64,000 nt of DNA, from NCBI GenBank assembly GCA_902777205.1, contig CACYSU010000003.1, positions 95,492 through 159,491 on the forward strand. The letters are read 5' to 3'. The stretch is from an uncultured Rhodospirillales bacterium. Its GTDB lineage: Bacteria; Pseudomonadota; Alphaproteobacteria; CAAGCB01; CAG-977. Made by a program: the position numbers and the translations under genes. Numbering within the stretch: position 1 is the stretch's first letter; every line of letters starts with the position of its first letter. The notes below the pieces were generated by a model. The model ran no database searches, was not told the DNA's origin, and saw nothing but the letters and a program-made list of their open reading frames with translations. Below, piece by piece: positions 13,580-42,967 of the stretch.

Positions 13580-13580
13580 G

Positions 13581-20303: not shown

Positions 20304-20313
20304 GGAAAAAAAG

Positions 20314-21048: not shown

Positions 21049-21058
21049 GGGACGGCAA

Positions 21059-22404: not shown

Positions 22405-22406
22405 AG

Positions 22407-22817: not shown

Positions 22818-22820
22818 AAT

Positions 22821-23561: not shown

Positions 23562-23573
23562 TCGGGGGAGACT

Positions 23574-26256: not shown

Positions 26257-26257
26257 A

Positions 26258-27232: not shown

Positions 27233-27244
27233 CAGGAGAAAGAA

Positions 27245-27487: not shown

Positions 27488-28871
27488 GTTTAAAGACAAC
27501 ACGGCCGTTGTGACGGAAGACGGGGAAACGTTTTCCTACGCGCGGCTGAGCGAGGAAACGGAAGCGTTGGCGGCTGTCATACCCGCCCGCTGTCTGGTTT
27601 TCAATTTGTGTTCGAATACGATCGGTTCTCTGATCGGGTATGTGTCGTTTCTAAATCACGGCATTGTGCCGCTGATGCTGGACGAACACATTGACCGCGA
27701 ACTGCTGGATAATTTCTTGACGCTTTACAAGCCGGATTATCTCTGGCTGCCGAGTGATAAGACGGCGGAATTCAAAGGCGAAGCCGTCTATGCTTCCAAC
27801 GGCTACACGTTGCTGAAGCGGGCGGACGAACACGCTTATCCTTTGTACGGGGAACTGGCATTGTTGCTGACGACTTCGGGATCGACCGGATCGCCGAAAT
27901 TCGTGCGTCAGAGCTATAAGAACATTCAAGCGAACACCCGTTCGATCGTCGAATATCTGGAAATCGGCGAAACGGAACGCGCGATCACGACTTTGCCGAT
28001 GAACTACACCTACGGATTGTCGATCGTCAATACGCATCTGGCGGCGGGGGCGACGCTTCTGCTGACGCGCAAGACGTTGATGCAACGCGAATTCTGGGAC
28101 TTTTTCACACAGCAAAAGGCGACCTCTTTCGGCGGCGTCCCCTACACTTACGAGATGCTGGACAAGCTGATGTTCTTCCGCCGCAAGCTGCCCGATTTGC
28201 GCACGATGACGCAGGCGGGGGGCAAGATTCTGCCCGAACTGCACAAAAAGTTCGCCGAATACGCCGGACGCGAAGGCAAACGCTTTGTCGTGATGTACGG
28301 ACAAGCGGAAGCGACGGCGCGCATGGCGTATCTGCCCGCGGCTAAGGCTTTGGAAAAATGCGGCGCGATGGGGATCGCCATCCCCGGCGGCAAGTTCGAT
28401 CTGATCGATGCGGACGGCGGCAGGATCACAACGCCCGAAACGGTCGGGGAACTGGTCTATACGGGCGACAACGTAACGTTGGGCTATGCCGTTTGCGGTG
28501 AAGATCTGGCCAAAGGCGACGAACGCGGCGGCGTGTTGCAGACGGGCGATATGGCGAAGTTCGACGCGGACGGATATTTTTACATCGTCGGGCGCAAAAA
28601 GCGGTTTTTGAAAATCTTCGGCAACCGCGTGAATCTGGACGAAACGGAACGTCTGATCAAAGCGCATTATCCCGATTTTGAATGCGCCTGCGCGGGCGTT
28701 GACGACGCGATGAAAATCTTTGTTACCGATGAAACGAAAATCAAGGAAGTGCAGGCTTTCGTCGCGGAAAAAACGCATCTGAACTTTACGGCGTTCCACG
28801 TCAAATATTTGCCCGAAATCCCGAAGAACGACGCGGGCAAGACCCTTTATGCGGAGCTGAACGAACGATGA
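27471..28871 (+). CDS. AMP-dependent acyl ligase (adenylate-forming enzyme)
   Basis: TTSGSTGSPK, MYGQAE, TGDMA, GRKKRFLKIFGNRV, PKNDAGK. Confidence 0.9.
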   Translation: MWNLLEFKDNTAVVTEDGETFSYARLSEETEALAAVIPARCLVFNLCSNTIGSLIGYVSFLNHGIVPLMLDEHIDRELLDNFLTLYKPDYLWLPSDKTAEFKGEAVYASNGYTLLKRADEHAYPLYGELALLLTTSGSTGSPKFVRQSYKNIQANTRSIVEYLEIGETERAITTLPMNYTYGLSIVNTHLAAGATLLLTRKTLMQREFWDFFTQQKATSFGGVPYTYEMLDKLMFFRRKLPDLRTMTQAGGKILPELHKKFAEYAGREGKRFVVMYGQAEATARMAYLPAAKALEKCGAMGIAIPGGKFDLIDADGGRITTPETVGELVYTGDNVTLGYAVCGEDLAKGDERGGVLQTGDMAKFDADGYFYIVGRKKRFLKIFGNRVNLDETERLIKAHYPDFECACAGVDDAMKIFVTDETKIKEVQAFVAEKTHLNFTAFHVKYLPEIPKNDAGKTLYAELNER

Positions 28872-29458
28872 CGGAAACGGACAGATACATTGTCGCGCCA
28901 ACCGATGCCGCAAACGAAATCCGTATGCAGCGGAACGGCTTTTTCTTTGCCGACCGCACGGTGAAAACGACGATCGGGCTGTCCAAAATCGCGGTCGATT
29001 TGGACAGGTTCATCCGTTTGCCGATCATCGAAACGACGGATTTTAAAGACGATGTTTTGCGCATTGCCGTCGCTTCATTCGCCTATGACCGGCGTTTCCA
29101 CGTTCTGCCGGATTGTTCGACCGATGTTTCAAGCGTCGTTTTGAAAAAATGGGTTGAAGAGTTGGATACGTTTTTTGTCGCTTTGTTCAAGGAACGGCCT
29201 GTCGGTTTTCTGGCGTTGAAAGAAACGGCGCCGGACACGGTTTTCGTGCATCTGGCGGCGGTCGAGGAAAAATACAGAATGACGGGCGCGGCGATGGCTT
29301 TGTATGCGAACGCCTGCAAAATCGCCAAAGAGCGCGGTTATAAAAAACTGGAGGGGCGCGTCAGTACGCAAAACACGGCTGTAATGAACGTCTATACCGC
29401 TTTCGGCGCGACCTTTTCCGAACCGCAGGACATTTTTATCAAAGAGGGGGAGGCATGA
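28868..29458 (+). CDS. GNAT acyltransferase
   Basis: VHLAAVEEKYRMTG, NTAVMNVY..FG. Confidence 0.7.
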   Translation: MTETDRYIVAPTDAANEIRMQRNGFFFADRTVKTTIGLSKIAVDLDRFIRLPIIETTDFKDDVLRIAVASFAYDRRFHVLPDCSTDVSSVVLKKWVEELDTFFVALFKERPVGFLALKETAPDTVFVHLAAVEEKYRMTGAAMALYANACKIAKERGYKKLEGRVSTQNTAVMNVYTAFGATFSEPQDIFIKEGEA

Positions 29459-30531
29459 CGCTTGAGGACTTGTTTCAAATCGCGCCATATTCTTTGAACA
29501 AAGCCGAAAAGGATGCGGCTTTAAAGGATATTTTAAACGACCTGACACGCCGTCATTATGCGGCTTGCCCCGAATACGCGCGGATACTGGACGCGCTGAA
29601 GTTTGACACGGCGCAAAATCACGATTGTGCGGACTTGCCGTTTTTGCCCGTCCGGCTGTTCAAACAGTTCGAATTGCGCTCCGTCCCGAAAGAGGAAATC
29701 ACGAAAACGCTGACATCATCGGGAACGTCGGGGCAGGCGGTGTCCAAAATCTTTTTGAATGCGGACAATGTGCGTTCCCAAACCAAAACGCTGAACGAGA
29801 TTATTTCTTCTTTCATCGGCAAACAGCGTCTGCCGCTGTTGTTGCTGGATACGGAAATGATTAAAAAAGACCGTTCGATGTATTCGGCGCGCGGCGCGGG
29901 CATCATCGGATTTTCAATTTTCGGGCGCAACAGCACTTACGCGCTGGACGCCGAGATGAACATTGATGTCGACAAAGTCGCCGCTTTCTTCGATGAACAC
30001 AAAAACGAACCGATTTTGATGTTCGGCTACACCTATATGATCTGGCAGTTCGTCGTGCGCGCTTTGGAGGAAAAGAACATTTCCTTTAACGCTCAAAACG
30101 CCGTGTTGTTCCATATCGGCGGGTGGAAAAAGCTGAAAGATCAGGCGGTCGACGCGTTGGAATTCAACCGCCGCGTCCAAGGACGTCTGGGCAACGTCAA
30201 AGTGTATAACTATTACGGTATGGCGGAACAGTTGGGATCGGTCTTTGTCGAATGTGAACACGGGCATATGCATTGCTCGAACTATTCCGACGTGATCATT
30301 CGCCGCTCGAAAGACTTTTCCGAAGCGGAAATCGGCGAAAAGGGATTGATGGAATTGTTGTCCGTTTTGCCGGTCAGTTACCCCGGACACGTTCTGTTGA
30401 CCGAGGACGAAGGGGAAATTCTGGGCGTGGACGATTGTCCGTGCGGCAGAAAAGGCAAGTATTTTAAAATCCACGGGCGCATCAAGAGCGCTGAATTGAG
30501 AGGGTGCAGTGATACCTTTGAACGGCGTTGA
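29455..30531 (+). CDS. luxE: LuxE-like acyl-protein synthetase
   Basis: LPFLPVRLFK, SSGTSG, GGWKK, NYYGMAEQ, LLTEDEG, ELRGCSD. Confidence 0.88.
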   Translation: MTLEDLFQIAPYSLNKAEKDAALKDILNDLTRRHYAACPEYARILDALKFDTAQNHDCADLPFLPVRLFKQFELRSVPKEEITKTLTSSGTSGQAVSKIFLNADNVRSQTKTLNEIISSFIGKQRLPLLLLDTEMIKKDRSMYSARGAGIIGFSIFGRNSTYALDAEMNIDVDKVAAFFDEHKNEPILMFGYTYMIWQFVVRALEEKNISFNAQNAVLFHIGGWKKLKDQAVDALEFNRRVQGRLGNVKVYNYYGMAEQLGSVFVECEHGHMHCSNYSDVIIRRSKDFSEAEIGEKGLMELLSVLPVSYPGHVLLTEDEGEILGVDDCPCGRKGKYFKIHGRIKSAELRGCSDTFERR

Positions 30532-31690
30532 GTATGTGATCGGAACGGCGGATGTCGTCAATACGCCGATACGGGTGTATGACGATACGGCGTGCGCTTT
30601 TATCGCGGAGCTGTCGGCGGAAATTCTGAAATCCCCGTTGGCAAGGGCTTATCCGGATTTGTCGGCTTTGGCGTTTTGGGGACGCAAGGCGAACCTGCAA
30701 AAGCTGAAAGAAGCGTTCGGCGATACGGCGGGACGCCTGGGGCGCGGATTGTGCTTTCATATCGCGCCGTCCAACATTCCGGTGAATTTCGCGTTCACTT
30801 ATCTGTTCGGACTGCTGGCGGGAAACGCGAATATCGTCCGCCTGCCGTCGAAGACTTTCCCGCAGATCGACGCTTTGTGCGCTTTGATGAAAAAAACGCT
30901 GTCCGGATATCCCGAAATCGAAAAAAGGACGGCGTTCGTCCGCTATCCGCGCAGCGATGAAATCACCGCTGAATTTTGCAAACACGCCGACGCCCGTATG
31001 ATTTGGGGCGGTGATAAGACGATCGCCGCCGTCAAAGCCTGTCCGGCGTCCCCGCGCTGTGTCGATATCGCTTTTGCCGACAGATATTCTCTGGCGATCA
31101 TTGACGGCAAAGCGGTTTTGAACGCCGATGAAGCGCAGGTGAAACGGTTGGCGGAGAACTTCTATAACGACACGTGGCTGATGGATCAAAATGCGTGTTC
31201 TTCGCCGCAGATGATTCTGTGGCAAAATGACAGCAAAGCGGCGCGGGAAAAATTCTGGAACGCCGCTTTGGCGGTTGCGCGGGAAAAATACGCACTGCAA
31301 GATGCGGTCGCCGTTGACAAATACACGCTGTTCTGCACCGAAGTCGTCAGCAACGACAACGCGGAAAGCTTCACCCGCAACGGCAACCTGCTGTATCGGG
31401 AGGAGGTCAAAGCCCTGACGCCCGACATCATCAACCACCGCGGCAAAGGCGGATACTTCTTTGAACACGCTTTGACGGATTTAAGCGAACTTTGCGCCGT
31501 GATTACGGAAAAATTCCAGACAATCACTTACTTTGGTATTGACGCCGTCAAACTGCGCGAAGAACTGATTGCGGCGAACGTCCGCGGCATCGACCGCATC
31601 GTCCCCGCCGGTAAAGCGATGGATATCGACGTTATCTGGGACGGACACGATTTGGTCAGGGAATTGTCAAGGATTGTGAGTGTCGCATGA
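30509..31690 (+). CDS. luxC: LuxC-like acyl-CoA reductase
   Basis: GRGLCFHIAPSNIP, WGGDKTI, DQNACSSP (catalytic Cys), RIVPAG...WDG. Confidence 0.88.
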   Translation: MIPLNGVEYVIGTADVVNTPIRVYDDTACAFIAELSAEILKSPLARAYPDLSALAFWGRKANLQKLKEAFGDTAGRLGRGLCFHIAPSNIPVNFAFTYLFGLLAGNANIVRLPSKTFPQIDALCALMKKTLSGYPEIEKRTAFVRYPRSDEITAEFCKHADARMIWGGDKTIAAVKACPASPRCVDIAFADRYSLAIIDGKAVLNADEAQVKRLAENFYNDTWLMDQNACSSPQMILWQNDSKAAREKFWNAALAVAREKYALQDAVAVDKYTLFCTEVVSNDNAESFTRNGNLLYREEVKALTPDIINHRGKGGYFFEHALTDLSELCAVITEKFQTITYFGIDAVKLREELIAANVRGIDRIVPAGKAMDIDVIWDGHDLVRELSRIVSVA

Positions 31691-32811
31691 GGAATTTTAT
31701 GGCAAACGACCAAGATAACCACTTATATAATATAGACTTGTTAAGATTTCTGTTTTCATTGGTGATTATCAATCATCACCTTTTTGTAAAGCCATTTCTG
31801 TTTGTCACAATGAAAGGACAGATTCCTTTGTTGAACAGTATTTGGGCAAAATCTTTAAAAGGTTATCTCGGTGTGGAATTCTTTTTTATTCTGGCCGGAG
31901 TATGGCTGGGAAAAACGATTGAAAGCAATAATCTTGACATAAAAACTTTTGTTCAACGGAAAATCATACGTCTATGGCCTGTATTGGCATTTTCGATTTT
32001 ATGTTTTTGGATAGTGTCTTTATTCGGATTAACAAAATTCCAAAAATACAGTGACGTATTAAACCTGCTTTTTTTGCAAAGCAACGGTTTGACATTGAGC
32101 TTCGGGGATAATGAAACCGCCTGGTTTGTCTCCTGTCTTTTCTGGGTCAGCATTTTTTATTTTTCTTTGTATAAAACGATTCAAAGTAAATCGTTTTATT
32201 TTATTGTTTCTATGATTGTTTATTTTTGTTTTGTTTTAATGATAAACAATAAATCCGGTTCTTTTAACTGCCATCTGAAACCTGTGATCTTCTCTCTTTT
32301 TAATTTCGGAATGATACGTGCCGCCGCGGAAATCGGGTTGGGCATAGGTCTGTGGAAAATATTTTCAGCCTTATCGGAAAAAAATTCTGAGCCGTCATTA
32401 ACGTCGAAAATATTGTACGGAAGCGCTGAGCTGTTTTTACTTATTGTTATATTTAATAATTTGGCTTTCCGACATTTTAAATTCGCAAACGATTTGTTTT
32501 TAACGTTAGCCATTGCCGGTCTGATTCTGTTGTTTATGTTGAAACGCGGCGGATTATCATTGGCGTTAAATCAGAAATTCTTTGGAAAGCTTGGAGCTGT
32601 TTCATATTCAATATATATGATGCAGGAAGTTTTCTTTGTCTTTTTAGCAAAAGGACTTTCCGTTTATTACAACAAATTATTAACCGCTCCGGACAGCGTT
32701 ATTTTGACTGTTTATATCGGATGTTTGATTGCGCCTGTCTGTTTAGGGACGATTACCTATGCTCTCGTGGAAAAACAAAGTGTTATCAGGATGTTGAGGA
32801 GGAACAAATGA
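31687..32811 (+). CDS. Acyltransferase family 3 (OafA-like membrane O-acyltransferase)
   Basis: IDLLRF, GVEFFFILAG, RLWP, AWFVS, SYSIY; about 10 TMs; AT-rich. Confidence 0.85.
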   Translation: MRNFMANDQDNHLYNIDLLRFLFSLVIINHHLFVKPFLFVTMKGQIPLLNSIWAKSLKGYLGVEFFFILAGVWLGKTIESNNLDIKTFVQRKIIRLWPVLAFSILCFWIVSLFGLTKFQKYSDVLNLLFLQSNGLTLSFGDNETAWFVSCLFWVSIFYFSLYKTIQSKSFYFIVSMIVYFCFVLMINNKSGSFNCHLKPVIFSLFNFGMIRAAAEIGLGIGLWKIFSALSEKNSEPSLTSKILYGSAELFLLIVIFNNLAFRHFKFANDLFLTLAIAGLILLFMLKRGGLSLALNQKFFGKLGAVSYSIYMMQEVFFVFLAKGLSVYYNKLLTAPDSVILTVYIGCLIAPVCLGTITYALVEKQSVIRMLRRNK

Positions 32812-34254
32812 ACAAAAAACAAATACTCAAAAAGCCGGTGAAAAAAGTCTATTTTATGTTTCCCTGCTATGCTATTGGTGGGGGAGAATTACTAATTATC
32901 CGTATTATAGAGCATCTTCTTAAATACACGGACATTAAAGTCGGGATTATTGATTTTTCCGATGGAACACTGTATCGGACGTGTAAAAAGTTCTTTCCGG
33001 AAAATGATATCGAATATATCGAGTATCGTCAGTCTTCTTGGAACCTGGAGGACGATGCCGTCATTTTTACATCGGCGGATCATTTAGGATGCATCAAACC
33101 GCATACGGGGGAAAATGTGCGTATCAGCATTATCCTGTGGGAAAACGGTATTGCCTGGAAAACGTTGTTTGAAAAACGCAAAATCCCCGCTGTTTCCAAA
33201 CTGATAAATCAAAACGATGCAATGTGTTTTATGGATTACGGATGTTATACATCCGGTTGCCGACAGCTGAATCAAGTTTTCGAAAAAAACTATTTACCGA
33301 TTTTTTTCCAGAAGCCGGTTTATCAGCATTTCGATAAAAAGACTCCGGATAATGAAATTAATATGATCTGGCTTGGCAGGCTTTCAGAAGCAAAAGAGCA
33401 ATCTATTTATAATATAGTTGAAAACTTCTACAACTATAAGACGCAAAAAAAAGAAAGTATTTCACATTATCGGAAACGGAACGCAGGAACATATAATTAA
33501 AAAAAATCTGAAAAAATATGAAGATAAAATAAAATTTATTTTCACTGGCGTTATTACCGGTGATGCATTGTTTCAATATATACGGGAAAATGCTGATATT
33601 GGTGTCGCAATGGGAACATCGGCGTTGACGTTTGCGGCTTTAAAAATTCCGGTATTAATGGCACACGAACACCCCACGCCTTTCTTTTCCAATGAATTCG
33701 GATGGTTGTTTGATATGTATGATTATTGCACCGGATCGCCTGTCATAAAAGACGAATTTACATTGCCGATGTTTCAGAATCTTTCAAGTTTTGACCAACT
33801 GCTTGACGACATTACTTTAAACGGGAAAAAAGAGCCAATAGGCAAAAAATGTTTTCAATACTATGCAGACAAGCACAATGATTTGAAAAAAACGGCGCAA
33901 GCTTTCATAGATTGCGTCGGCAAAACGACATTGACCTATGAAATGTTGAAAAAAACATTAAAGTTCATGCCGTACGACGGAAGAGACGGATTAGAGATCT
34001 ATAGATACAATATTATGGGGCTTCCCTTTTTAAAGGTATTCTATCATGGATATACAAGACAATACTATATTTTCGGATTAAAGGTCTTTAAAAGAATATC
34101 GACGCCGCAATGTTTTAAATTTTATCTTTTTTTCATCAAGGTTTTTCAGATCAAACGATGGGGACGTTACTCTTTTCCGTCGACCACATCAGAGACCATT
34201 CGTGAAGAATGTAAAGACAAATACGCCATAAACGATCTTTATTATAACGAATAA
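32808..34254 (+). pseudogene. Glycosyltransferase-like gene split by a frameshift in an A8 tract
   Basis: ORFs 32808-33500 and 33418-34254 fuse (..NYKTQKKKVFHIIGNG..) if one A is removed from A8 at 33445-33452; GT-B-like motifs GGGEL, WLGRL, MGTSAL. Confidence 0.7.
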
Positions 34255-34265
34255 GGTAAAAAGTA

Positions 34266-35105
34266 ATGAAAACAAAATATGCAGTTTCTCTGGGCCTTGA
34301 TTGTGCTATGGCCGGTTTGCTGAAAGATGCCGGCGTGAGAGCTTTTTCCTCTCCATTCGACTGGCTTGACAGTTCAGATGCGAAAACCAGAGTTTCTCTG
34401 ATTGAAAGTGAATTCAAAGACTTTCTCAATATAGAGGATTTGGAACAAATCTTTATTGAAAATGATCCTCAGAGGGGGGGGATGGACAGGTATAGAAATA
34501 ATCGTACAAAACTCTGTTTCCATCATGATTTCAGAAGTGATTTGCCTTTTGAAGAGGCCTATAAAAAAGTGGCTGAAAAATATAACCGTAGAATTAAAAA
34601 TTTTTTAAATGTCTATCGCCAGGATTATAAAGTTACTTTATTTGTTCTGGATCGGTTTTCACAAATGGATGACCAAAGCATTAAAGATGTTTTTGACACG
34701 ATTAAACAGTATGTTGTTGTAATATCAAATTGTGATACTGTTGACAAAGATTCATATGTTCAAACAAAAATCACAGACCACATATTTCATTATAAGGTGA
34801 ACAACACTCCGACGGATGTAACGGAAGCTTTTCAAAAATTCAAAGGAAATATCCCCATTATAAAACAAATAATTTTACAGCACACTAAGAAGAGTAATTT
34901 TTTTGATAAAAAAACATATAAATGTTATAAATGGTTAAGGAAAAAACTGTCCGTATGTGTAGCTAAAAATGAAATGTCATTTTCAGACAAACTTTTATTT
35001 CGTATTTTTTGCTGTTTTCGAAAAAAAATTCTATTCACGCCTCTTGTTAAAGACAGAAAAGAGGATTTTTCATTATATGAATCTTTGATAAAGTTATGCA
35101 AATAA
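34266..35105 (+). CDS. DUF1796-family protein (putative papain-like)
   Basis: VSLGLDC, SSPFDWL, FHHDF, KYNRRIKNF; contains a G8 tract at 34474-34481. Confidence 0.75.
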   Translation: MKTKYAVSLGLDCAMAGLLKDAGVRAFSSPFDWLDSSDAKTRVSLIESEFKDFLNIEDLEQIFIENDPQRGGMDRYRNNRTKLCFHHDFRSDLPFEEAYKKVAEKYNRRIKNFLNVYRQDYKVTLFVLDRFSQMDDQSIKDVFDTIKQYVVVISNCDTVDKDSYVQTKITDHIFHYKVNNTPTDVTEAFQKFKGNIPIIKQIILQHTKKSNFFDKKTYKCYKWLRKKLSVCVAKNEMSFSDKLLFRIFCCFRKKILFTPLVKDRKEDFSLYESLIKLCK

Positions 35106-35146
35106 GGGTGCGTTACCGTATCAAGCGGTAACACACCCTTTTCTTT
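35104..35146. terminator. Intrinsic terminator between the convergent glycan operon and tail-fibre genes
   Basis: AAGGGTGcGTTACCG...CGGTAACaCACCCTT followed by TTCTTT. Confidence 0.75.
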
Positions 35147-35474
35147 ACGGTTCTTCGGGAAATTCGCAATGTTCCGGAAATCCGGATTGAAGAGGAATAT
35201 CCCGCAGAAACTGGCGGTAAGTTGCGTATTTTTCTTTCATTTCCGTTGTTACGGGATAATCGGGCAGCATATATTTGTCTGTTTCTTTCAACAGGAGATT
35301 CCGCCGTTGTCTTATGTCGACGGCCAGTTCTTCGGCACTTTTTCCAGGGAAATCGGCAAACTGAAGATTTCCCTGTTCATCGATCGCCAGCGTTTTTCCT
35401 TTTTCATTCGCTTCGACGGCTTTTTTTGCATACAACTCAGGATTTTCAAGAGAAAATTGATACAAAGTCTTCAT
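35145..35474 (-). CDS. Phage tail fibre assembly chaperone-like protein
   Basis: IRQRRNLLLKETDKYMLPDYP..YRQFLRDIP.Q.GFP....P..P motif. Confidence 0.85.
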   Translation of the reverse strand: MKTLYQFSLENPELYAKKAVEANEKGKTLAIDEQGNLQFADFPGKSAEELAVDIRQRRNLLLKETDKYMLPDYPVTTEMKEKYATYRQFLRDIPLQSGFPEHCEFPEEP

Positions 35475-35491
35475 GTCTTTTTCCTTTCTGA

Positions 35492-36409
35492 TTAATATCC
35501 GCAGGCATACCAGCTGGTCGAGGTATAATTTGACCCCGCCCAGGAAATAGACGAGTTTGTCTTCTCCGTAATGGAAACGCTCTGAACGCCGTATGAATTA
35601 TAAATCACCGGCGTTGATACCACGGTGTAATTTGTATTGGAAAATGGCTTTGGCCAGGTGAACGATGCCGTCGCCCCCACAAGACTGCCTCCTTGTTCGA
35701 TCCAGCCGTCGGACCAGACACGATACCAGCTTGAACCGTTGTGCCAGCTTTGGACAATCACTGCCGGAGTTGTTTCCGCGACAGCGGAAGTTCCCCATTT
35801 GGCGACGCCGTAAACAGTTTTTGATGCGTAGACATCCTTATCTGCTTTATTTGCTAGCGTGTTCGCCGCTTCCAGCGCTTTATCTGTTGCCAGTTGAGCC
35901 TGTTCGTCCGCTGTTCGAGCCGATAGAGCCGCGTTTCCGGCTTGTTGCTCGGCCAAGGCTAACATTTCACGCGCTGTTTCCGCATAGCCTGCCGTATCGG
36001 ACACGCTTTGCCTGATCGATGGAATTAGGCTTGTAGCGTCTGTATCCTCGAACACGTCCACCGTGACCGCGCGATCTGCCTGTTCTTTCAACTGCTGTAT
36101 TTGCATCGTCAGTTTGTCGAAATCGCGTTCCAGCGTTTCGGCCGGCAAAATCTCGTTTTCACGATAGTCCGTTTCCTGCGTCAACGGCACTTCGCGCATT
36201 ATCACGATTTGCGCATTTTCCTCCGGCGCCGTCGCAAAAACCATATTCCCGTTCGAAACGGTCCAATCCGTCCGTTCCGTCTGAATGTCATTCAAAAGTT
36301 GTCTGACCGTTAAATGCTCCTTTTCCAAAAAAGGAAACGGGATCGCAAATGTCGTCGCAACCCCGTTTCCGATATAATTCACTTTGTTGGTTGTCGTACT
36401 TACCGTCAT
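35492..36409 (-). CDS. Short phage tail fibre protein (T7 gp17-like N-terminus, gp53-like C-terminus)
   Basis: N-terminal YIGNG..TTFAIPFPFL...REVPLTQETDY..LERDFDKLTMQIQQL; Ala-rich coiled linker; C-terminal SWYRVWSDGWIEQGG..WYACGY; GAGGT RBS. Confidence 0.85.
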   Translation of the reverse strand: MTVSTTTNKVNYIGNGVATTFAIPFPFLEKEHLTVRQLLNDIQTERTDWTVSNGNMVFATAPEENAQIVIMREVPLTQETDYRENEILPAETLERDFDKLTMQIQQLKEQADRAVTVDVFEDTDATSLIPSIRQSVSDTAGYAETAREMLALAEQQAGNAALSARTADEQAQLATDKALEAANTLANKADKDVYASKTVYGVAKWGTSAVAETTPAVIVQSWHNGSSWYRVWSDGWIEQGGSLVGATASFTWPKPFSNTNYTVVSTPVIYNSYGVQSVSITEKTNSSISWAGSNYTSTSWYACGY

Positions 36410-36422
36410 TTTTACCTCAAAT

Positions 36423-36448
36423 AAAAAAAAGCAGGGATAATTCCCTGC
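36423..36448 (-). terminator. Intrinsic terminator just upstream of the tail fibre RBS
   Basis: Minus strand GCAGGGA-attA-TCCCTGC followed by T8. Confidence 0.75.
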
Positions 36449-36519
36449 CGGTTCACAATCAACACGCTTCTTAAGATATAACATATTGTTATTGTTTTTG
36501 TTAAAATGTCAAGCTGTTT

Positions 36520-37251
36520 TTACCTTTCCCGTTCCGCCGACCGTTCCGCCGATCTTCTCTGTTCGTGGAGTTCGCGAAGTTGCCGGATCGTTTTGTGCTT
36601 CCGCGGAATAACCATTTGCGTCAGAGAGAAATCTCTGTCCTGAAACCGCGTAGCTTGCATCTCCCAACCGAACTCTTTGGCAACTTCGACTTGGTGTTGC
36701 CGGAGCATTTGCAGTTGTGGCTTTTTGAGTTTCAGCCGCTCCCGTCCGTTCGACATTTTCAACAAAATGTGTCCGTGCGTTGCCGATTGATGTGTGTGAA
36801 CGGCGTATAAATACCGATACCCTCTTTCCGCGAAAGGTTCCATATACCGCTCAATAAACCGGTAGGCTTCGTCCTCGCTGACGTTCATTCTTTTGGGGAA
36901 CGATACGATCAGATGAACCATTGCGTTTCCATTTTTCCGCCGCTGTTCCAGATCATAAGCGTCTATTGTTTCGTTCAGTTTTTCGGTCGGGATCAGTCGC
37001 CGTTCGTCATCATAAACACGCGCGTCCTTTTCCATTCCCTCCGAACCGTGAGCGATATAATGAGCGATGTTCTTCGCTCCCGTCGGTGATTTCACATAGA
37101 ACGCGACTTTAACCATAGCTTCGGGCGGCGGCACTTTGAAAGAAAGCGTCGCCCTCTGTCTTGCGGGCGGCGAATAGTGAACCGGAAAGCGTTGCCGCGC
37201 GACGTATATTCCTCGGATATGTTCGTCCAACCAGTTCCGTTTATTCGCCAT
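36520..37251 (-). CDS. MOBP/VirD2-like relaxase (short, 243 aa)
   Basis: EAMVKV, HYIAH (catalytic Tyr), HLIVSFP, AVHTHQSATHGHILL (3H motif). Confidence 0.85.
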   Translation of the reverse strand: MANKRNWLDEHIRGIYVARQRFPVHYSPPARQRATLSFKVPPPEAMVKVAFYVKSPTGAKNIAHYIAHGSEGMEKDARVYDDERRLIPTEKLNETIDAYDLEQRRKNGNAMVHLIVSFPKRMNVSEDEAYRFIERYMEPFAERGYRYLYAVHTHQSATHGHILLKMSNGRERLKLKKPQLQMLRQHQVEVAKEFGWEMQATRFQDRDFSLTQMVIPRKHKTIRQLRELHEQRRSAERSAERER

Positions 37252-37585
37252 AATACGCCGCCAAAAGTTTGTTGATTTTATCCCGGAGCGCGTGAAGTTC
37301 GCGACAAGCCTGCTGTAAATCCCGCAAAGTTTTTTCTTCAAGGGATTGCTTTTTTATCAACGTCGTGTTCAAAGCGCGGACGGCTTGATTGGTGTTGACG
37401 CCGACCTTTCGGGCTTGTTCTTCGAGCTTTGTCAGCAGGAGGATTTCGTCATAGTGCGGGATCTTCATCTGATGAAGCCCCGCAAGAATGAACAACCGGA
37501 TCAGGCGGGACGGAGATTGTTTTTCGGCGACAAGCGCGTCCCAAATTTCTTTTTCTATTCTGAACGATTTAACAATAAGCCTCAT
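37241..37585 (-). CDS. mobC: MobC-like relaxosome accessory protein (RHH)
   Basis: KSFRI RHH-like start, RKVGVNTNQAVRALN; overlaps the relaxase start. Confidence 0.8.
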   Translation of the reverse strand: MRLIVKSFRIEKEIWDALVAEKQSPSRLIRLFILAGLHQMKIPHYDEILLLTKLEEQARKVGVNTNQAVRALNTTLIKKQSLEEKTLRDLQQACRELHALRDKINKLLAAYYGE

Positions 37586-37656
37586 TTCAGCCTCTCTGTT
37601 TTATCGTTCAAGCGTGTGTGACGGGTAAAATTTTACAGCTGTTTGAGTGTGATTTC

Positions 37657-37810
37657 AAGGGCGGGTTGGCGGGGCATTTTTCGCTCTTTTTGTATTACAA
37701 AAAGGCTATCCTGCAAAAAAGTAGCCCTCAAGAGCATCAATCCCTTGCGAATCAGCCTTAAAACGCCTCAAAACAGCCTCAAAACTGACCGCGCCCGCCC
37801 AACCGCCCTT
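37657..37810 (+). other. Origin of transfer (oriT) with MOBP-type nick site
   Basis: TATCCTG^C at 37707-37714 matches the RP4-type YATCCTG^Y consensus. It is preceded by the inverted repeat CTTTTTGTA-t-TACAAAAAG (37686-37704) and lies upstream of mobC. Confidence 0.8.
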
Positions 37811-37876
37811 TGTTGTAGGCTATTCAAACGGTGTCGCCGCGTGTGCGGCGACCGATTTTTTTCGGGGAATACGGCT

Positions 37877-38149
37877 CTATTCGGAGCCGTATTCTTTCTG
37901 TTTGTGATAGATTTTAGGGGCGATTTTTGTTTCAAAGTAAGCCTCGAAGGCTTCGTTGAGCAGGTGCTTTTCCATCGCAAAAAACACCTCCGAAAGCCAA
38001 CCGCTTTTTGCCAAAGTCTTTAATGCGGGCAAATCCTCTTCCGGAACGTCCCCGCCGTGTATGAAGTTAAACAGGGAAGTGTCAAACTTCACGTCGGCGC
38101 GTTCTTCAAAGTCTGGTAAAAACTCCTCTATTAAATCCCAATACAACAC
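37877..38149 (-). CDS. Small acidic hypothetical protein (leading region)
   Basis: 90 aa, GTG start with AGGGAGG RBS, D/E-rich. Confidence 0.7.
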   Translation of the reverse strand: MLYWDLIEEFLPDFEERADVKFDTSLFNFIHGGDVPEEDLPALKTLAKSGWLSEVFFAMEKHLLNEAFEAYFETKIAPKIYHKQKEYGSE

Positions 38150-38152
38150 TGT

Positions 38153-38566
38153 TCAGTCCTCCCTGATAGCCTGACCGACGGGGCAAGGCGTGAAAAACAA
38201 ATCCAATTCCGCAAGCTCCAAAAGTTCGTCAACGGAGATGTATCCGGCCTCGAAACCGTATCCGAAACTCGCCCAACCGAACGCCTGAATTTGCTTTTCG
38301 GCGGTGTCTTTTTCGACGATATGGGCATCATAAGAACCGACAAAATAGTGCAGTTGAGCCAAAGCGTTTTTGCCTTGTCCGTCCGTTTCATAGACTTGCG
38401 GCATCGTTTTTATTCGCTCGGCAAGGTTCAGGATAATGTCCGCGAACGCTCCGGCTTCTTCCGAGTGATACAGATTGTCAATGAGGGTTTGAGCCTGCCG
38501 AACCGGAATAAACGGTTTAAGGGTCGTTTTCATTTCGTTTAAGGCTTGGTCGAATTTATCAGTCAT
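38153..38566 (-). CDS. DUF2958-like protein
   Basis: ETDGQG..A..HYF, AFGW..G..EAGYISVDEL..ELDLFF.P; start MTDKFD with GAAGGAG RBS. Confidence 0.75.
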   Translation of the reverse strand: MTDKFDQALNEMKTTLKPFIPVRQAQTLIDNLYHSEEAGAFADIILNLAERIKTMPQVYETDGQGKNALAQLHYFVGSYDAHIVEKDTAEKQIQAFGWASFGYGFEAGYISVDELLELAELDLFFTPCPVGQAIRED

Positions 38567-38774
38567 ATTGAAAGCTCCTTCTCTGTAAAAAGCACTTGTT
38601 AAAGGGTTTTTGGCGTCGCGCCTGAAACCCTTACGAGGTGCTTCGTCGGGGAGAAGAAAGCGGATTGTCATTCCAAGAAAAACGGAGGGGGATCACCAGG
38701 CTTGCAACGACACCGGAGCGAAAGTCGGGGACACCGTTTTTCTTCCGTTAGGCGGAGGGAATTGACAATCAAGA
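38549..38774. repeat. Structured leading-region repeat, copy 1
   Basis: Near-identical to 40337-40565; two long hairpins; includes RBS and first 6 codons of the downstream gene. Confidence 0.92.
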
Positions 38775-38814
38775 CAGAAAAAAACAAACGACTTGGTAGA
38801 AACGACCTCTGTAT

Positions 38815-39120
38815 AAAAACGACTGAGCCGTTTTGCCCCGACGCGGTCTGAAAGATAGGCGACGGTTTGCCGTCCCTTATATCTCTTATGGGGTCATTAT
38901 AAGCATAGAGTTTTTTTACAAAGAAAAAACGAACCCGTCACCTGACCGTGACGGGTTCTGAAAGATGGGTGCGTAATGTGCCCCCTTTATCTCTTATGCA
39001 TTTATTATAAGCATAGAGTTTTTCTTTTACAAGTCTTTTCTATCTGATATATTCCCTTTGCCGCACATACGGCTGAAAGGGGGTGAATAATGTGACCACC
39101 CTTTATCTCAAAATGGCGGC
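38815..39120 (-). ncRNA. Three tandem sRNA-like hairpin units (putative)
   Basis: Plus-strand CTGAAAG at 38848, 38958 and 39073, each flanked by hairpins. Minus-strand TATAAT in two units, with TTGTAA-17-TATAAT at 39004-39032. An 11-bp stem plus U-tract lies at 38921-38958. Confidence 0.5.
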
Positions 39121-39177
39121 GTATTTGTTGTTGATAATAGCATTACTGCTTGAAGTCATCAATAAATAACAAAGCCT

Positions 39178-39215
39178 GCCCGTGATGGTCTGACCGCTGT
39201 CACGGGCGTTTTTTT
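39178..39215 (+). terminator. Terminator-like hairpin
   Basis: GCCCGTGA...TCACGGGC followed by GTTTTTTT. Confidence 0.5.
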
Positions 39216-39290
39216 CTATCCGTTCGGGCGCAACTGTGTTGTGGAGTGGTTGGGCGAACGGATCGGGCGGCGGAAACCCCGCCCGAATTT

Positions 39291-39452
39291 TTAGAAATAA
39301 TAGGTCGTCTTTTCCAAATCATCGCGCTTGTATCCCTGCGCGATCAGTTCGTAAAATTTCGACAGTTGGGCGGCTTTGCTGTCAAAGTCAAAATGTTCTT
39401 TTTCGTAGCCGTCCGCGCCGTAAACCGTCAGTCTGAAAAAAGCAATCTTCAT
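39291..39452 (-). CDS. Small hypothetical protein downstream of ardC
   Basis: 53 aa MKIAFFRLTV...; GAGGAGG RBS; followed by a GC hairpin at ~39263-39286. Confidence 0.65.
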   Translation of the reverse strand: MKIAFFRLTVYGADGYEKEHFDFDSKAAQLSKFYELIAQGYKRDDLEKTTYYF

Positions 39453-39481
39453 TGTTCTTCCTCCTCTTTTGAGGGAAGCGG

Positions 39482-40354
39482 TCAAGCCGCTTCCCGTCCG
39501 ATTTCCTGGAATGTCAGCAGATAGTCAAAAGCCTTTTGCGCTTCGGAGCAGGCTTTGAAAAACGCCTTTTTGTCGTTCTTCAAAACCTTGAGCCAAGATT
39601 TCAGATACGCAAGATTGTTTTTGCTGAATTGGTAGTCATAGCCCAAATATCCGGCGACAAATCCCGCGCCGATGTCGGCGATCAGTTCCTCAAAGGCGTA
39701 GGATTCATTTCCGAAATGGCCTTTCATATCCCGGTTTAAGCGGTTCTTGTGTCCGGTCGCGTGGATCGTTTCGTGCGCCAAAGTCGAAACGAAGCCCGTT
39801 TCCGTTTTGAAGTCTTTTCTTTCCGGCATTAAGACAACATTGTTTTTCGGGTCGTAGCCTGCCAAAGTCGCGCCGTAAAAATAAGTGATGTCCGTGTTTT
39901 CAAAGAACGCCATCACGTCCTTTTCAACGCTAAATTCGGCTTTTTCTATGTCTTCGCCGAATCCCTCGACTTGCGAACCGTTAAACACGGAATAAGCGCG
40001 GGCGACAAAAGCCTGATTTTCGACTTCTTCGATGTCGCCGGTTTCGGTGTTTTCGATTTCGCATTTATAGGAAAGAGGTTTCCAGAAAACGATGGTCGTG
40101 GCCTTTGAGCCTTTCTTGACCTGATAGCCTTTATCCTGCCATTGGCGATAAGTGCCCCAAACGGACGAAGAAAAACCGTTGAACAAAGCGGCAAAGTTCA
40201 AAATCAGAATGTTGATTCCGCGATACGCCTTTTTTGTCGTGATGTTCCGGGCAAAAGAGGAAATGAACGGCTTTTCCCATTCGCCCGAAAAGTTTTCCAA
40301 GCGTTCGATGATGGTGTTTGAAACGGTTTCGATGATGTCGAATTTATCAGTCAT
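39482..40354 (-). CDS. ardC: ArdC antirestriction/ssDNA-binding protein (DUF1738 + zincin-like)
   Basis: WEKPF, YRGINIL, WGTYRQW..G.QVKKG.K, YSVFN..Q, LAHETIHATGH, YAFEELIA, YLKSWL. Confidence 0.92.
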   Translation of the reverse strand: MTDKFDIIETVSNTIIERLENFSGEWEKPFISSFARNITTKKAYRGINILILNFAALFNGFSSSVWGTYRQWQDKGYQVKKGSKATTIVFWKPLSYKCEIENTETGDIEEVENQAFVARAYSVFNGSQVEGFGEDIEKAEFSVEKDVMAFFENTDITYFYGATLAGYDPKNNVVLMPERKDFKTETGFVSTLAHETIHATGHKNRLNRDMKGHFGNESYAFEELIADIGAGFVAGYLGYDYQFSKNNLAYLKSWLKVLKNDKKAFFKACSEAQKAFDYLLTFQEIGREAA

Positions 40355-40565
40355 TTTGAAAGTTCCTTCTCTGTAAAAAGCACTTGTTAAAGGGTTTTTG
40401 GCATCGCGCCTGAAACCCTTTCGAGGTGCTTCGTCGGAGAGAAGAAAGCGATTGTCATATTCCAAGAAAAACGGAGGGGTATCTCCCTCGGCTTGCAACG
40501 ACACCGGAGCGAAAGTCGGGGAAACCGTTTTTCTTCCGTTAGGCGGAGGGAATTGACAATCAAGA
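40337..40565. repeat. Structured leading-region repeat, copy 2
   Basis: Near-identical to 38549-38774; sits in front of ardC. Confidence 0.92.
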
Positions 40566-40590
40566 GAAAATCAAGGCTTAAAATATAATC

Positions 40591-40605
40591 GTTCTCTGTT
40601 TGTTC
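40591..40605 (+). promoter_or_regulatory. Alphaproteobacterial LexA (SOS) box
   Basis: GTTC-tctgttt-GTTC just after TATAAT (40584-40589), upstream of a Y-family polymerase. Confidence 0.8.
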
Positions 40606-40651
40606 TTGTTTTTAATCAACGAATCTGATAGTTTCGGATTCGGAGGAAAAT

Positions 40652-41920
40652 ATGCCGGACAAGACTTATTTGTGCATCGACCTGAAATCGTTTTACGCGT
40701 CCGTGGAATGCGTTGAACGCGGTCTTGATCCGTTTAAGACGAACCTTGTCGTCGCCGATCCCGCGCGGGGACGCGGCGGAATCTGCCTTGCGATCACTCC
40801 GGCGATGAAAGATTTGGGAATACATAACCGTTGCCGCATTTTTGAAATACCGAAAAACGTCAAATACATCACGGCTCTGCCGCGAATGAAACGGTATATG
40901 GAAGTGTCCGCGGACATTTACGGCACTTATCTGAACTTCGTCGCCCCGGACGACATTCACCCGTATTCGATTGACGAAGTGTTCATCGACGCGACCAATT
41001 ATCTGCACATCTATCATAAAACGCCGAAAGAAATGGCTGTAATGCTGATGAACGCCGTTATGGAGCGAACCGGAATATGCGCGACGGCGGGAATTGGAAC
41101 GAACCTTTTTCTGGCGAAAGTCGCTTTGGATATAACGGCAAAGCACGTTCCCGACCATATCGGATATTTGGATATTCCGGCGTTTGAACGGACGCTGTGG
41201 CATCACCGTCCGATAACGGATATTTGGAACATCGGGAGAGGAATAGCCTTCCGGTTGGAAAAATACGGCATTTACGATCTTTACGGCGTCGCCCATTGCG
41301 ACGAACGGCTTTTGTATAAAGAGTTCGGCGTCAACGCGGAGTTCCTGATCGACCACGCGCATGGGCTGGAACCGTGCGAAATCAGGGATATTCACGCTTA
41401 TAAATCCAAGACGAACTCCATATCGAACAGTCAAATCCTCTTTTCCGACTATACGTTCGGCGACGCTTTGATTTGCCTGAAAGAAATGGTCGATATGCTT
41501 TCCCTCGAACTGATTGAAAAGCATATGGTCGCTTCCGGCATCTCTCTGGGGGTCGGATATTCCCGTGATGTCGCGCCGTCAACCGGCGGCTCGGAGCGAC
41601 TGTCCGAACAGACGTCCTCTTATGATAAGCTCGTCAAAGAGTTTGAAAGCATTTATCGCCGAACGACGCGCAGGACAGCCCCCATACGCAAGCTGTCGAT
41701 CGCTTTCACAAACATCGTTGACGAAGATCACGCGACTTTACAGCCGGATTTGTTCTCTCAAAGGGAAGAAGACGAAAAAGAGCGCAAAATGCAGGAGGCT
41801 GTTTTGGCTATCAAGCAAAAATTCGGGAAGAACGCTCTGCTTCGGGGAATGAGTTATACGGAAAAAGCGACGGCGCGGGTCAGAAACAAACTGATCGGAG
41901 GACACAATGGCGGCGAGTAA
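40652..41920 (+). CDS. Y-family (UmuC/ImpB/UvrX-like) error-prone DNA polymerase
   Basis: CIDLKSFYASVEC, YSIDEVFID, GIGTNLFLAKVALD, C-terminal KFGKNALL..RNKLIGGH. Confidence 0.92.
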   Translation: MPDKTYLCIDLKSFYASVECVERGLDPFKTNLVVADPARGRGGICLAITPAMKDLGIHNRCRIFEIPKNVKYITALPRMKRYMEVSADIYGTYLNFVAPDDIHPYSIDEVFIDATNYLHIYHKTPKEMAVMLMNAVMERTGICATAGIGTNLFLAKVALDITAKHVPDHIGYLDIPAFERTLWHHRPITDIWNIGRGIAFRLEKYGIYDLYGVAHCDERLLYKEFGVNAEFLIDHAHGLEPCEIRDIHAYKSKTNSISNSQILFSDYTFGDALICLKEMVDMLSLELIEKHMVASGISLGVGYSRDVAPSTGGSERLSEQTSSYDKLVKEFESIYRRTTRRTAPIRKLSIAFTNIVDEDHATLQPDLFSQREEDEKERKMQEAVLAIKQKFGKNALLRGMSYTEKATARVRNKLIGGHNGGE

Positions 41921-42251
41921 AGAAGAACGGGCGCGTCAATTCCTGCCGTTCAACGCTTTGACAGGGTATTACCGGATGATTTTGGATCGACAGCGCGTTT
42001 CCGAATCGAAAAAAGAACTGTCCAAAGACGAAACGGAAGCCTTGTCCGAAAAGATAAAGAGCCTCCGGCGGCACGACCTTGTTTCCGTAACGTATTACGA
42101 CCAGGACGCTTACATCACAAAGACGGGGTTGATTACGGATATTGACCTTACGTTCCAAACGCTGACGGTCGTGAAAACCAAGATAGCGTTTCAGGACATT
42201 TTTGACGTGGAAACACGAAAAGACTTTGCGAAAGGGCTTGAAACGGGATAA
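41907..42251 (+). CDS. YolD-like protein
   Basis: ERARQFLPFNALTGY, VTYY..AYITKTG.I..ID; overlaps the polymerase. Confidence 0.85.
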   Translation: MAASKEERARQFLPFNALTGYYRMILDRQRVSESKKELSKDETEALSEKIKSLRRHDLVSVTYYDQDAYITKTGLITDIDLTFQTLTVVKTKIAFQDIFDVETRKDFAKGLETG

Positions 42252-42287
42252 TCTGCGCTTCTGTTTATATTTTTAAGGAGTTGCATT

Positions 42288-42560
42288 ATGAACAAAGCAG
42301 AATTGGTGGCTGAAATCGCGAAGAACACGGGTTTGACGAAAGTTGATTCCGAACGGGCGACGGAAGCCTTGTTGAATACGGTTGCCGCGACCTTGAAGAA
42401 AGGCGATGAAGTTCGTTTGGTCGGCTTTGGCACGTTCAGCGTCGCCAAACGCGCTGCGACCGAAGGTCGCAATCCGCGCACCGGTGCCACGATCAAGATT
42501 CCGGCTTCCAAACAGCCGAAGTTCAAAGCCGGTAAAGGTTTGAAAGACGCTTTGAACTAA
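42288..42560 (+). CDS. hup: HU family DNA-binding protein
   Basis: MNKAELV, VRLVGFGTF, GRNPRTG..IKIPA..PKFKAGK.LK. Confidence 0.95.
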   Translation: MNKAELVAEIAKNTGLTKVDSERATEALLNTVAATLKKGDEVRLVGFGTFSVAKRAATEGRNPRTGATIKIPASKQPKFKAGKGLKDALN

Positions 42561-42580
42561 AACCGGTTTCAAAAACAGAC

Positions 42581-42613
42581 AAAGGCGTGTCCGTTCGGAC
42601 GCGCCTTTTCTTT
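42581..42613 (+). terminator. Intrinsic terminator after HU
   Basis: AAAGGCGTGTCC-gttc-GGACGCGCCTTT followed by T-rich tail. Confidence 0.8.
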
Positions 42614-42799
42614 ATACCAGAACAATATTTCCCATTTTTCCATATTTTTCCCAAAGAACGACTCTGAAAAAAGACGCAGAAATGTTGGATTGTCGGAACA
42701 AATTTTCCGATATTTCCGATTTTTCCCTTATTCCGAAGTCAGAAAAGATGCGTTTTGAGCTTAAATTTTTCTATTAGAACGACATAAATGTCATTTTTT

Positions 42800-42821
42800 T
42801 GTTAGACACTTGTTAGACACT
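42800..42821. repeat. Tandem 11-bp direct repeat, candidate integrase arm-type sites
   Basis: TGTTAGACACT x2, about 70 bp inside the tRNA 3' end. Confidence 0.6.
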
Positions 42822-42859
42822 TCGCTTTTCAGAGGAATATAGCGTTTCCTTTGGACAAC

Positions 42860-42887
42860 AAAAAACCCGCAGTATTCTGCGGGTTTT
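42860..42887 (-). terminator. Terminator downstream of tRNA-Arg
   Basis: AAAACCCGCAG-tatt-CTGCGGGTTTT hairpin. Confidence 0.8.
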
Positions 42888-42890
42888 GAT

Positions 42891-42967
42891 TGGCGCGCCC
42901 AGGAGAATTCGAATCCCCAGCCTTCTGATCCGTAGTCAGATGCTCTATCCAGTTGAGCTATGGGCGC
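42891..42967 (-). tRNA. tRNA-Arg (anticodon ACG)
   Basis: GCGCCCATAGCTCAACTGGATAGAGCATCTGACT-ACG-GATCAGAAGGCTGGGGATTCGAATTCTCCTGGGCGCG-CCA, 77 nt cloverleaf. Confidence 0.97.

Follow-up and report, generated by a model that had tools for sequence, protein, structure and literature searches.

A Tail Fibre and Its Chaperone on a Conjugative Element

We examined a stretch of 64,000 nucleotides (the window) from the genome of an uncultured Rhodospirillales bacterium (assembly GCA_902777205.1, contig CACYSU010000003.1, positions 95,492 to 159,491) and, within it, two adjoining genes for a podophage-type tail fibre and its assembly chaperone, carried by an integrative and conjugative element (ICE). 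The pair stands between the relaxase gene of the element (36520-37341) and a glycan operon (12719-35105), as a first-pass annotation of the DNA had described. The source genome of the window is termed G000, and contig numbers such as C3, on which the window lies, refer to it unless another genome is named.

The fibre gene (35492..36409, minus strand) encodes 305 residues. An in-frame ATG upstream, at 36484, would extend the product to 330 residues; the start was placed at 36409 because all 28 aligned relatives (alignment A1) begin MT(V/I)S. Over residues 1-115 the protein matches phrog_1640, "tail protein" (PHROGs, E 2.3e-34), as a podophage N-terminal docking domain would, and it scores just below the Pfam cut-off of 25.2 against PF03906, Phage_T7_tail (E 4.2e-5, 23.7 bits). 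An AlphaFold2 model built on 28 relatives (pLDDT 72.7 overall, 77-90 over residues 11-70) has its best PDB match in the N-terminus of the Carin-1 tail fibre (8ck1_B, E 1.9e-5, 33% identity; Foldseek), with further podophage fibre N-termini in 7y22_e, 9efk_AE and, for T7 gp17, 7ey7_a and 7boz_b. The tip is matched in fold by the R2 pyocin fibre (6ct8, E 2.1e-4), 6cl6_A and AP22 gp53 (4mtm, E 8.1e-3); against PF21882, Gp53-like_C, it stays below the Pfam cut-off of 24.9 (E 1.5e-4, 22.7 bits). The PHROG and fold matches thus bear out the initial description of an intact fibre with a T7 gp17-like N-terminus and a gp53-like tip. Directly downstream, 17 nt past the fibre stop, lies the 109-residue chaperone (35145..35474, minus strand), a clear Phage_tail_APC protein (PF16778, E 7.7e-21, 74.1 bits against a cut-off of 26.6) that also matches phrog_4912 (E 1e-18), in keeping with its first identification. 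A homologous chaperone stands 3' of the fibre in eight other loci (L028, L029, L031, L032, L034, L036, L042, and L043).

The fibres of podophages and their kin (T7 gp17, Carin-1 8ck1, AP22 gp53 4mtm, and R2 pyocin 6ct8) share with this protein the docking fold, a helical shaft, a lectin-like knob and a downstream chaperone. In contrast to them, the window fibre is short and is encoded outside any phage genome, on an ICE, its relatives standing in chromosomal glycan loci; a podovirus fibre gene normally adjoins the tail genes of a phage genome, whereas here the partner genes are on other contigs (see below). Pfam scans of 64 open reading frames (ORFs) of the window and PHROG scans of 31 revealed no capsid, portal, terminase or lysin, in agreement with the earlier reading of the window. 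That the missing phage genes might lie just to its left was also considered at the time; VirB4 (C3:90404-90973) and an integrase (C3:82612-83094) were found there instead.

The ICE occupies positions 1..42941 of the window, in the order RloB/RloA, VirB8/9/10, VirB11, VirD4, a TrbL-like gene, serine recombinases, the glycan operon, chaperone, fibre, relaxase, MobC, ArdC, ImpB/YolD and a tRNA-Arg that contains attR (42863-42941). The latter is a 79-nt direct repeat, 94% identical to a copy at C3:81717-81794, beside which the integrase stands; with such repeats at both ends, the ICE extends over ~56.6 kb (G000:C3:81717-138432). It therefore has a type IV secretion system (T4SS), coupling protein, relaxase, integrase and direct repeats at a tRNA. 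Relaxase (273 residues, PF03432, E 1e-11) and MobC together span 36520..37585 on the minus strand, and the promoter of the fibre begins 8 nt past the relaxase stop codon. We considered whether the relaxase had been truncated by the cargo and rejected this, orthologues having open frames of 273-279 residues. A cargo-free ICE of the same family in genome G001 (L229), in which the relaxase directly abuts the TrbL-like and VirD4 genes, identifies window positions 11318-36519 as inserted cargo. The same ICE occurs in G005, with backbone proteins 92-97% identical and a fibre beside the relaxase, but there the fibre has a different tip (553 residues) and the terminal glycan genes differ from those of the window. 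The adjacency of fibre and relaxase, for which a search was proposed at the outset, recurs in G005 (G005:C14) and twice in G011 (G011:C77 and G011:C116), and relaxase remnants stand upstream of chromosomal fibres in G005:C15 and G006:C20.

A Fibre Family Linked to Glycan Loci

Comparisons were made within a family set of 28 genomes that includes G000, which are related and hence non-independent samples. The fibre query matched all 24 of the other genomes first searched, with one to eight copies each; among three added genomes, G041 has a fibre, G043 only a 42% match of prophage type and G042 none, so that fibres of the window type are present in 26 of the 28. Most copies are chromosomal and far from any ICE. 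G000 itself has a second copy on C9, beside a chromosomal glycan locus, with a ~40-nt gap relative to its G014 orthologue that is possibly an assembly artefact, and a third that runs off the end of C8. The relatives are 282-316 residues long. Their alignment, with 53 invariant columns in the conserved part, marks residues 1 to ~140 as the constant particle-docking domain and predicted start of the shaft; residues ~140-195 form an Ala-rich helix, and the last ~110 (~196-305 in the window fibre), the predicted receptor-binding part, fall into unrelated, swappable tip types. The median dN/dS of the N-terminus, a check suggested by the first-pass annotation, is 0.13 (24 of 27 pairs computable), which points to purifying selection.

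The linkage to surface genes recurs as well. In all 18 loci not ending at a contig edge, out of 20 fetched, glycan genes converge on the fibre or the chaperone. They include glycosyltransferases, acyltransferases, NeuB, RgpF, heptose-pathway genes and a glycerophosphotransferase, and form primary biosynthesis operons of 10-22 kb with exporters. A sheep-gut contig matches chaperone and fibre up to position 36214, with 13 differences in 900 nt, and diverges at about codon 65 of the fibre; a second sequencing run breaks at the same position. Such a breakpoint fits an exchange of tips by recombination in the conserved 5' part of the gene.

In IMG/VR, no viral contig carries the fibre N-terminus above 35% identity, and no close free phage was found there. 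Three "viral" contigs of 200-290 kb in that database (3300045988_152025, _152892, and _149940; L054-L115) hold many separate copies of gp53-like tips, as do metagenome-assembled genomes of Gastranaerophilales; these contigs may be bacterial, with multi-copy fibre families of their own.

Resident Podovirus-Type Particle Genes

IMG/VR podophage contigs that share the fibre N-terminus at 35% identity or less were translated and searched against G000, and matched contig C13. Here a cluster on one strand encodes a portal (phrog_332, E 1.7e-112), a scaffold-like protein, the major capsid protein (phrog_3437, E 3.8e-81), an adaptor (phrog_394, E 3.5e-53), a nozzle (phrog_376, E 2.7e-191; PDB 8ck1_A, "Tail Nozzle", E 1.7e-83), a small internal protein and an endolysin (lysozyme). 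The cluster contains no fibre gene. A lone large terminase gene, TerL, is found on C17 (C17:43003-44355; phrog_2, E 2.6e-26). The Carin-1 tail complex 8ck1 is the best solved match both for the fold of the window fibre (chain B) and for the sequence of the nozzle (chain A). The fibre had been called an orphan at first; this holds for the window but not for the genome, which has partner particle genes on C13 and C17. In G000 an 803-residue ORF suggested a fusion of nozzle and adaptor, which we discarded, since a separate 185-residue adaptor ORF overlaps it in another frame. A complex prediction with adaptor, nozzle and fibre residues 1-135 scored 0.30 against a mark of 0.32, a value that speaks neither for binding nor against it; in the true interface, 12 adaptor and six nozzle subunits meet trimers of the fibre (12:6:18).

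These genes behave as inherited parts of the chromosome. A core TerL (76-97% identity) occurs in 26 of the 28 family genomes, G043 having a 57% copy and G042 none, and a core nozzle (58-95%) in 24 of 28, with only prophage-type copies (32-34%) in G007, G012 and G043 and none in G042. The last genome, 96% complete, thus gives no match with the fibre, TerL or nozzle query, and G043 only prophage-type copies. The head-tail cluster is syntenic, with the same flanking genes across genera g1 and g2, and in G013 and G002 TerL is directly followed by a fibre. Values of dN/dS are 0.07-0.11 for the capsid, 0.09-0.25 for the portal and 0.03-0.09 for the adaptor, next to 0.06-0.13 for a flanking housekeeping gene; in the only unsaturated pair, the nozzle of G000 and G014, dN is 0.010 and dS 0.194. 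Together these ratios indicate that the head-tail cluster is under purifying selection. As in gene transfer agents (GTAs), then, head, tail and packaging genes are conserved and chromosomally inherited. In G000 the C13 cluster and TerL are flanked by non-phage genes (DUF6782 peptidase-like, DnaX, and tRNA_edit), among which PHROGs gave no match to replication or integrase genes; the capsid family of RcGTA and HK97-type phages, PF05065, has no match in G000. True prophages of the same lineage do exist in some relatives (L215 and L216), where a long fibre stands beside the nozzle.

Several minor features of these loci may be recorded. Immediately upstream, the C13 cluster adjoins a gene for a putative DUF6782 metallopeptidase (L192:8146-9309); a paralogue is found near a fibre locus in G005 (L032:10350-11465), and many more in G000. 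In genus g4 (L211, G019:C19), a histidine-kinase gene and a 441-residue gene are inserted among the head-tail structural genes (1852-3303), and tig-clpP-clpX-lon stands between the cluster and two fibre genes; these four were briefly candidates for internal virion proteins and were set aside as housekeeping genes. C24, a contig of 14 kb (L218), contains internal-virion-protein genes 87-95% identical to those of a G018 prophage and a copy, at 3184-3212, of the promoter motif described below, together with a helicase/restriction endonuclease pair (DUF4011, AAA_11/12, and MTES_1575).

A Shared Regulatory Cassette

Upstream of the window fibre lies a promoter-like site (36478..36512, minus strand) with a -35 hexamer TTGACA (36512-36507), a 16-nt spacer and a -10 hexamer AACAAT (36490-36485), 10 of the 12 hexamer positions being matches. 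A palindrome, ATAACA-ATA-TGTTAT (36492-36478, minus strand), overlaps the -10 hexamer, and between the promoter and the ribosome-binding site (RBS) and ATG the leader forms a hairpin of eight pairs, five of them GC, with a T8 tail (36422..36449, minus strand), resembling an intrinsic terminator. The whole arrangement (TTGACA, 16 nt, AACAAT with the palindrome ATAACA-N3-TGTTAT, GC hairpin and T-run, RBS, and ATG) stands upstream of all 27 of 27 fibres. A position weight matrix was built from 25 fibre upstream regions of other genomes, the window site being left out, with a reporting threshold of 25 bits. Seven sites in G000 score at least 25 bits: the window fibre (38.2, the genome-wide maximum), the fibres on C8 and C9, one immediately upstream of TerL (29.3), one upstream of the head-tail cluster (29.5), one on C24 and one on C5. 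The reversed genome gave one match and five shuffled genomes 0, 0, 0, 0 and 1. The leaders of the C17 terminase gene and the C13 head-tail cluster likewise contain a hairpin and T-run before the RBS, and the motif recurs upstream of the cluster in six of six other genomes, covering all four genera, and of TerL in two of two; it is absent from two true prophages that were checked. The accessory fibre loci are thus, as far as shared sequence can tell, co-regulated with the particle genes, as GTA accessory loci are.

A candidate control locus is the one on C5 (G000:C5:76094-79208, L224:6094-9208). Here an XRE repressor gene (L224:7656-8057) is divergent from a gene for a 152-residue protein, tandem copies of the motif lie between the two, and a 79-residue gene stands directly behind another copy. 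The 152-residue protein is present in 25 of the 28 genomes, the three in which none was found being G042, G043 and G023. GafA homologues of RcGTA carry a DUF6456 annotation (PMC9638019), and GafZ of Caulobacter is described as an anti-terminator whose loading site lies between -35 and -10 (PMC11150451). By analogy, the layout on C5 may correspond to GafA/GafZ control.

The cassette also bears on what the fibre does on the ICE. Originally it was proposed that the fibre might be a decoy, loading onto the tails of infecting podophages and spoiling or redirecting their progeny. Relatives do contain podophage prophages (L215 and L216) with a homologous fibre N-terminus (39-46%) and nozzle (33-40%), the ICE also carries an RloA/RloB-type pair, and its fibre N-terminus is of a type foreign to the chromosomal copies of the host. 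However, members of the fibre family stand on the chromosome in 26 of 28 genomes and are mostly off ICEs, the N-terminus is much nearer to other fibres of the family (71-88%) than to those of prophages, and the promoter cassette is common to the TerL and head-tail cluster of the host and missing from the two prophages. A fibre-less cluster and a TerL conserved in the family and equipped with the fibre's own cassette argue against an anti-phage decoy, which we regard as improbable. What survives of that proposal is that the fibre would load onto podovirus-type tails and change their target, the tails being most likely those of the cell itself.

A second early proposal, that the pair is a prophage relic captured along with the cargo, here taken to have no present function on the ICE, fares slightly worse. 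The interrupted C9 copy implies that fibre copies can decay. In the window, however, both ORFs as well as promoter, palindrome, hairpin and RBS are intact, with the best motif score of the genome; the N-terminus has a dN/dS of about 0.1, the relaxase-fibre adjacency was found again in G005 and G011, the convergent layout holds in all 18 assessable loci, the sheep-gut contig preserves chaperone and tip, and a cargo-free form of the ICE exists (L229). An inert passenger is therefore very improbable. The third, a soluble receptor-blocking lectin, can be widened to any role of the fibre away from a particle, such as an adhesin or a PilV-like factor that recognises recipients during mating-pair formation; it could draw on the closeness of the fibre promoter to the relaxase, on the relaxases or their remnants upstream of fibres in G005:C14, G005:C15, G006:C20, G011:C77 and G011:C116, and on the lectin-like predicted fold of the tip. 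Yet no signal peptide is evident by eye in the N-terminus (MTVSTTTNK...), the conserved part of the protein is a virion-docking domain, and most copies are far from ICEs. Such a role leaves unexplained the purifying selection on that domain, the promoter shared with particle genes and the fact that G042 yielded neither fibre nor TerL nor nozzle, and we find it scarcely credible.

A Probable Domesticated Particle System

The explanation that we favour, and consider probable, is that fibre and chaperone serve as a functional accessory module in a GTA-like particle system, domesticated from a podovirus and kept by the bacterial family as a whole, and that the ICE captured a unit of glycan genes plus fibre. 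In such a system the particle parts would be dispersed over the chromosome, as the fibre-less head-tail cluster on C13, the lone TerL on C17 and separate fibre genes, the latter combining a constant docking N-terminus with a swappable tip and standing tail-to-tail with surface-glycan operons. Since one cassette serves all the particle loci, these should fire together under one repressor and/or anti-terminator, for which the XRE repressor and the 152-residue protein, with its weak GafA-type (DUF6456) match, would be the candidates. The fibre would dock on the resident particle, particles would be made and would carry DNA, and the tip would recognise the glycan made next door. The ICE, in turn, would have taken up a unit of recombinase, glycan operon, chaperone and fibre into the space that separates relaxase and T4SS genes; because the captured unit is complete, conjugation would give a recipient of the same family both a new surface glycan and a fibre pre-wired into its particle regulon.

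As to what the tip is for, the fibre of RcGTA binds capsule (PMC10218006); we favour a tip that matches the cell's own glycan, and thus delivery targeted to kin, over self-avoidance, although we place this at somewhat less than an even chance. More speculative still, and on balance doubtful, is the full extension of the idea, in which the ICE moves a matched pair of glycan operon and GTA fibre that is expressed only when the particle regulon of the recipient fires, re-labelling the cell and re-addressing its DNA-carrying particles.

Several observations count against this interpretation. Genomes G007 (95% complete) and G012 (89% complete) have no core nozzle though they have TerL and fibres, and large internal core proteins of the T7 type are outside the conserved set, the copies on C24 being sporadic (6 of 28). 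The N-terminus of the window fibre falls with its counterparts in G005 and G011, both carriers of the same ICE (86-88% identity over 140 residues), and is only 62-72% identical to the alignable parts of the chromosomal copies of G000. Tip similarity correlates only weakly with the share of a 6.5-kb flank in common (Mantel rho 0.25, a value reached by 6 of 2000 permutations), a correlation that physical linkage alone could explain. Each of the three most similar tip pairs shares more than half of the flank; L031 and L037 have 86% of it in common and yet unlike tips. In a strict test no pair was alike in tip and first neighbour together, 18 being alike in the tip only and four in the neighbour only. 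The match of the 152-residue protein (L224:8203-8661) to DUF6456 is below cut-off (E 0.0026, 18.3 bits, cut-off 26.3). Finally, the 20 loci were hand-picked for long contigs from ~75 N-terminal hits and are not a random sample, and dS is saturated (~1 or more) for most pairs, so that most dN/dS ratios are rough.

The weak correlation suits equally well a seroconversion logic, in which the fibre is that of the resident particle and the linked glycan operon masks or alters its receptor, sparing producers and their kin, as weapon and shield. P22-like podophages keep O-antigen-modifying genes beside the tailspike gene, and a gene of the O-acyltransferase family Acyl_transf_3 is found near the fibre here (31687-32811) and in L028, L029, L035 and L036. 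On the other hand, the unit is outside any prophage and the linked loci are large biosynthesis operons with exporters, 22 kb long in the window, rather than small modification cassettes, and a particle that has capsid, portal and TerL and avoids kin would bring no obvious benefit of gene transfer. This logic seems to us rather unlikely.

Most gene transfer agents on record come from cultured Alphaproteobacteria, and their ancestry is siphoviral. The GTA-like system favoured here shares with RcGTA and CcGTA phage-derived structural genes kept by the host and fibre genes away from the head-tail cluster; it differs in its podovirus ancestry (portal, adaptor, and nozzle of T7/Carin-1 type, gp17-type fibre) where theirs is of the HK97-type siphoviruses, and in having multi-copy fibres with swappable tips, abutting glycan operons and one unit on an ICE. 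In RcGTA both tail fibre and head spike bind capsular polysaccharide (PMC10218006), and the regulation of CcGTA involves a repressor, an activator and an anti-terminator, the last with a binding element between -35 and -10 and with terminators to bypass (PMC11150451). Closer in some respects is FpGTA of Faecalibacterium prausnitzii, a GTA-like element from the gut presented as "most likely podovirus-like" and as the first of the gut and of this morphology (PMC12946183). Its genes, too, stand at more than one locus, the second of two encoding the fibre and receptor-binding protein, but it belongs to the Firmicutes and is described with packaging and proteomic evidence; it is not known for glycan linkage or ICE carriage. 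In our literature search, which covered papers without their supplementary gene lists, FpGTA was the sole podovirus-like GTA and nothing was found on such a system in gut Alphaproteobacteria.

If the favoured explanation is correct, widespread uncultured Alphaproteobacteria of gut and rumen own an undescribed, podovirus-derived, multi-locus particle system, the targeting parts of which would be modular, tied to the coat genes of the cell and able to move with a conjugative element. Three routes of horizontal transfer (conjugation, transfer by particles, and the switching of surface antigens) would then be joined in a single locus, and the question of how GTA producers choose their recipients would become directly testable. 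Were glycan and fibre to travel as a matched pair, serotype-specific gene-exchange groups could be created or merged by what would amount to a transferable "who-I-share-DNA-with" code. The combination of promoter, palindrome and leader terminator offers a simple sequence handle by which all parts of the system could be sought in metagenomes.

Composition of the Cargo and Neighbouring Features

The glycan operon (12719..35105, plus strand; ~22 kb, assigned by Pfam) converges on chaperone and fibre. It encodes GT2, GT92, an epimerase, an ABC exporter, DegT, FdtA, GNATs, SDR/KAS-III pairs, transketolase halves, an AMP-ligase, LuxE/LuxC and Acyl_transf_3, and ends in a low-GC block of three genes (32721-35105; GC 0.33-0.38 at 32-35 kb). 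The operon is a mosaic at the level of genes. GC falls to 33-38% over 31687-35105, and the sheep-gut contig has no Acyl_transf_3 gene, skipping 31678-32850 while the remainder is almost identical.

Two tandem serine-recombinase genes (11332..12726, plus strand; PF00239, phrog_125) precede the operon. The first (11332-11928) is invertase-like (PF00239, E 1.2e-33; phrog_125, "DNA invertase", E 2e-46); the second (12091-12726; PF00239, E 8.7e-9; phrog_125, E 3e-17) is 25% identical to it and, in a pairwise alignment of the two, has no serine at the catalytic position. Homologues of these recombinases flank fibre-glycan units in L042 and L045. Receptor-binding systems of the seroconverting or invertase-switched kind include the P22 gtr-tailspike, the Gin/G segment of Mu and the R64 shufflon. 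Like them, the window unit links a receptor-binding protein to glycan genes and includes a recombinase of the DNA-invertase family (phrog_125); unlike them, it is outside a prophage, with the invertase 23.5 kb from the fibre and without inverted repeats joining the two. We found no convincing inverted repeats between 35-36.5 kb and the recombinase end, as Gin/Cin/Pin-type inversion or a shufflon would entail, the best inverted pair from the fibre region being one of 29 nt at 83% with its other arm within the glycan operon at 20.1 kb, and no alternative tip segment in the window; no invertible segment could be defined.

Elsewhere on the ICE, between the VirB4 side and VirB8, an RloB-like gene (PF13707) is paired with an AAA_21 ATPase gene (145-2033, minus strand) as a candidate defence module; a 75%-identical relative of this ATPase adjoins a prophage in G012 (L216). 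The ArdC ORF and a 172-residue ORF (phrog_5203) share a near-identical start of ~40 residues, ...DEAPRKGFRRDAKNPLTSAFYREG.F.MTDKFD (38550-38671 and 40380-40504, minus strand), which is probably a repeated, non-coding element of ~120 nt upstream of two leading-region genes.

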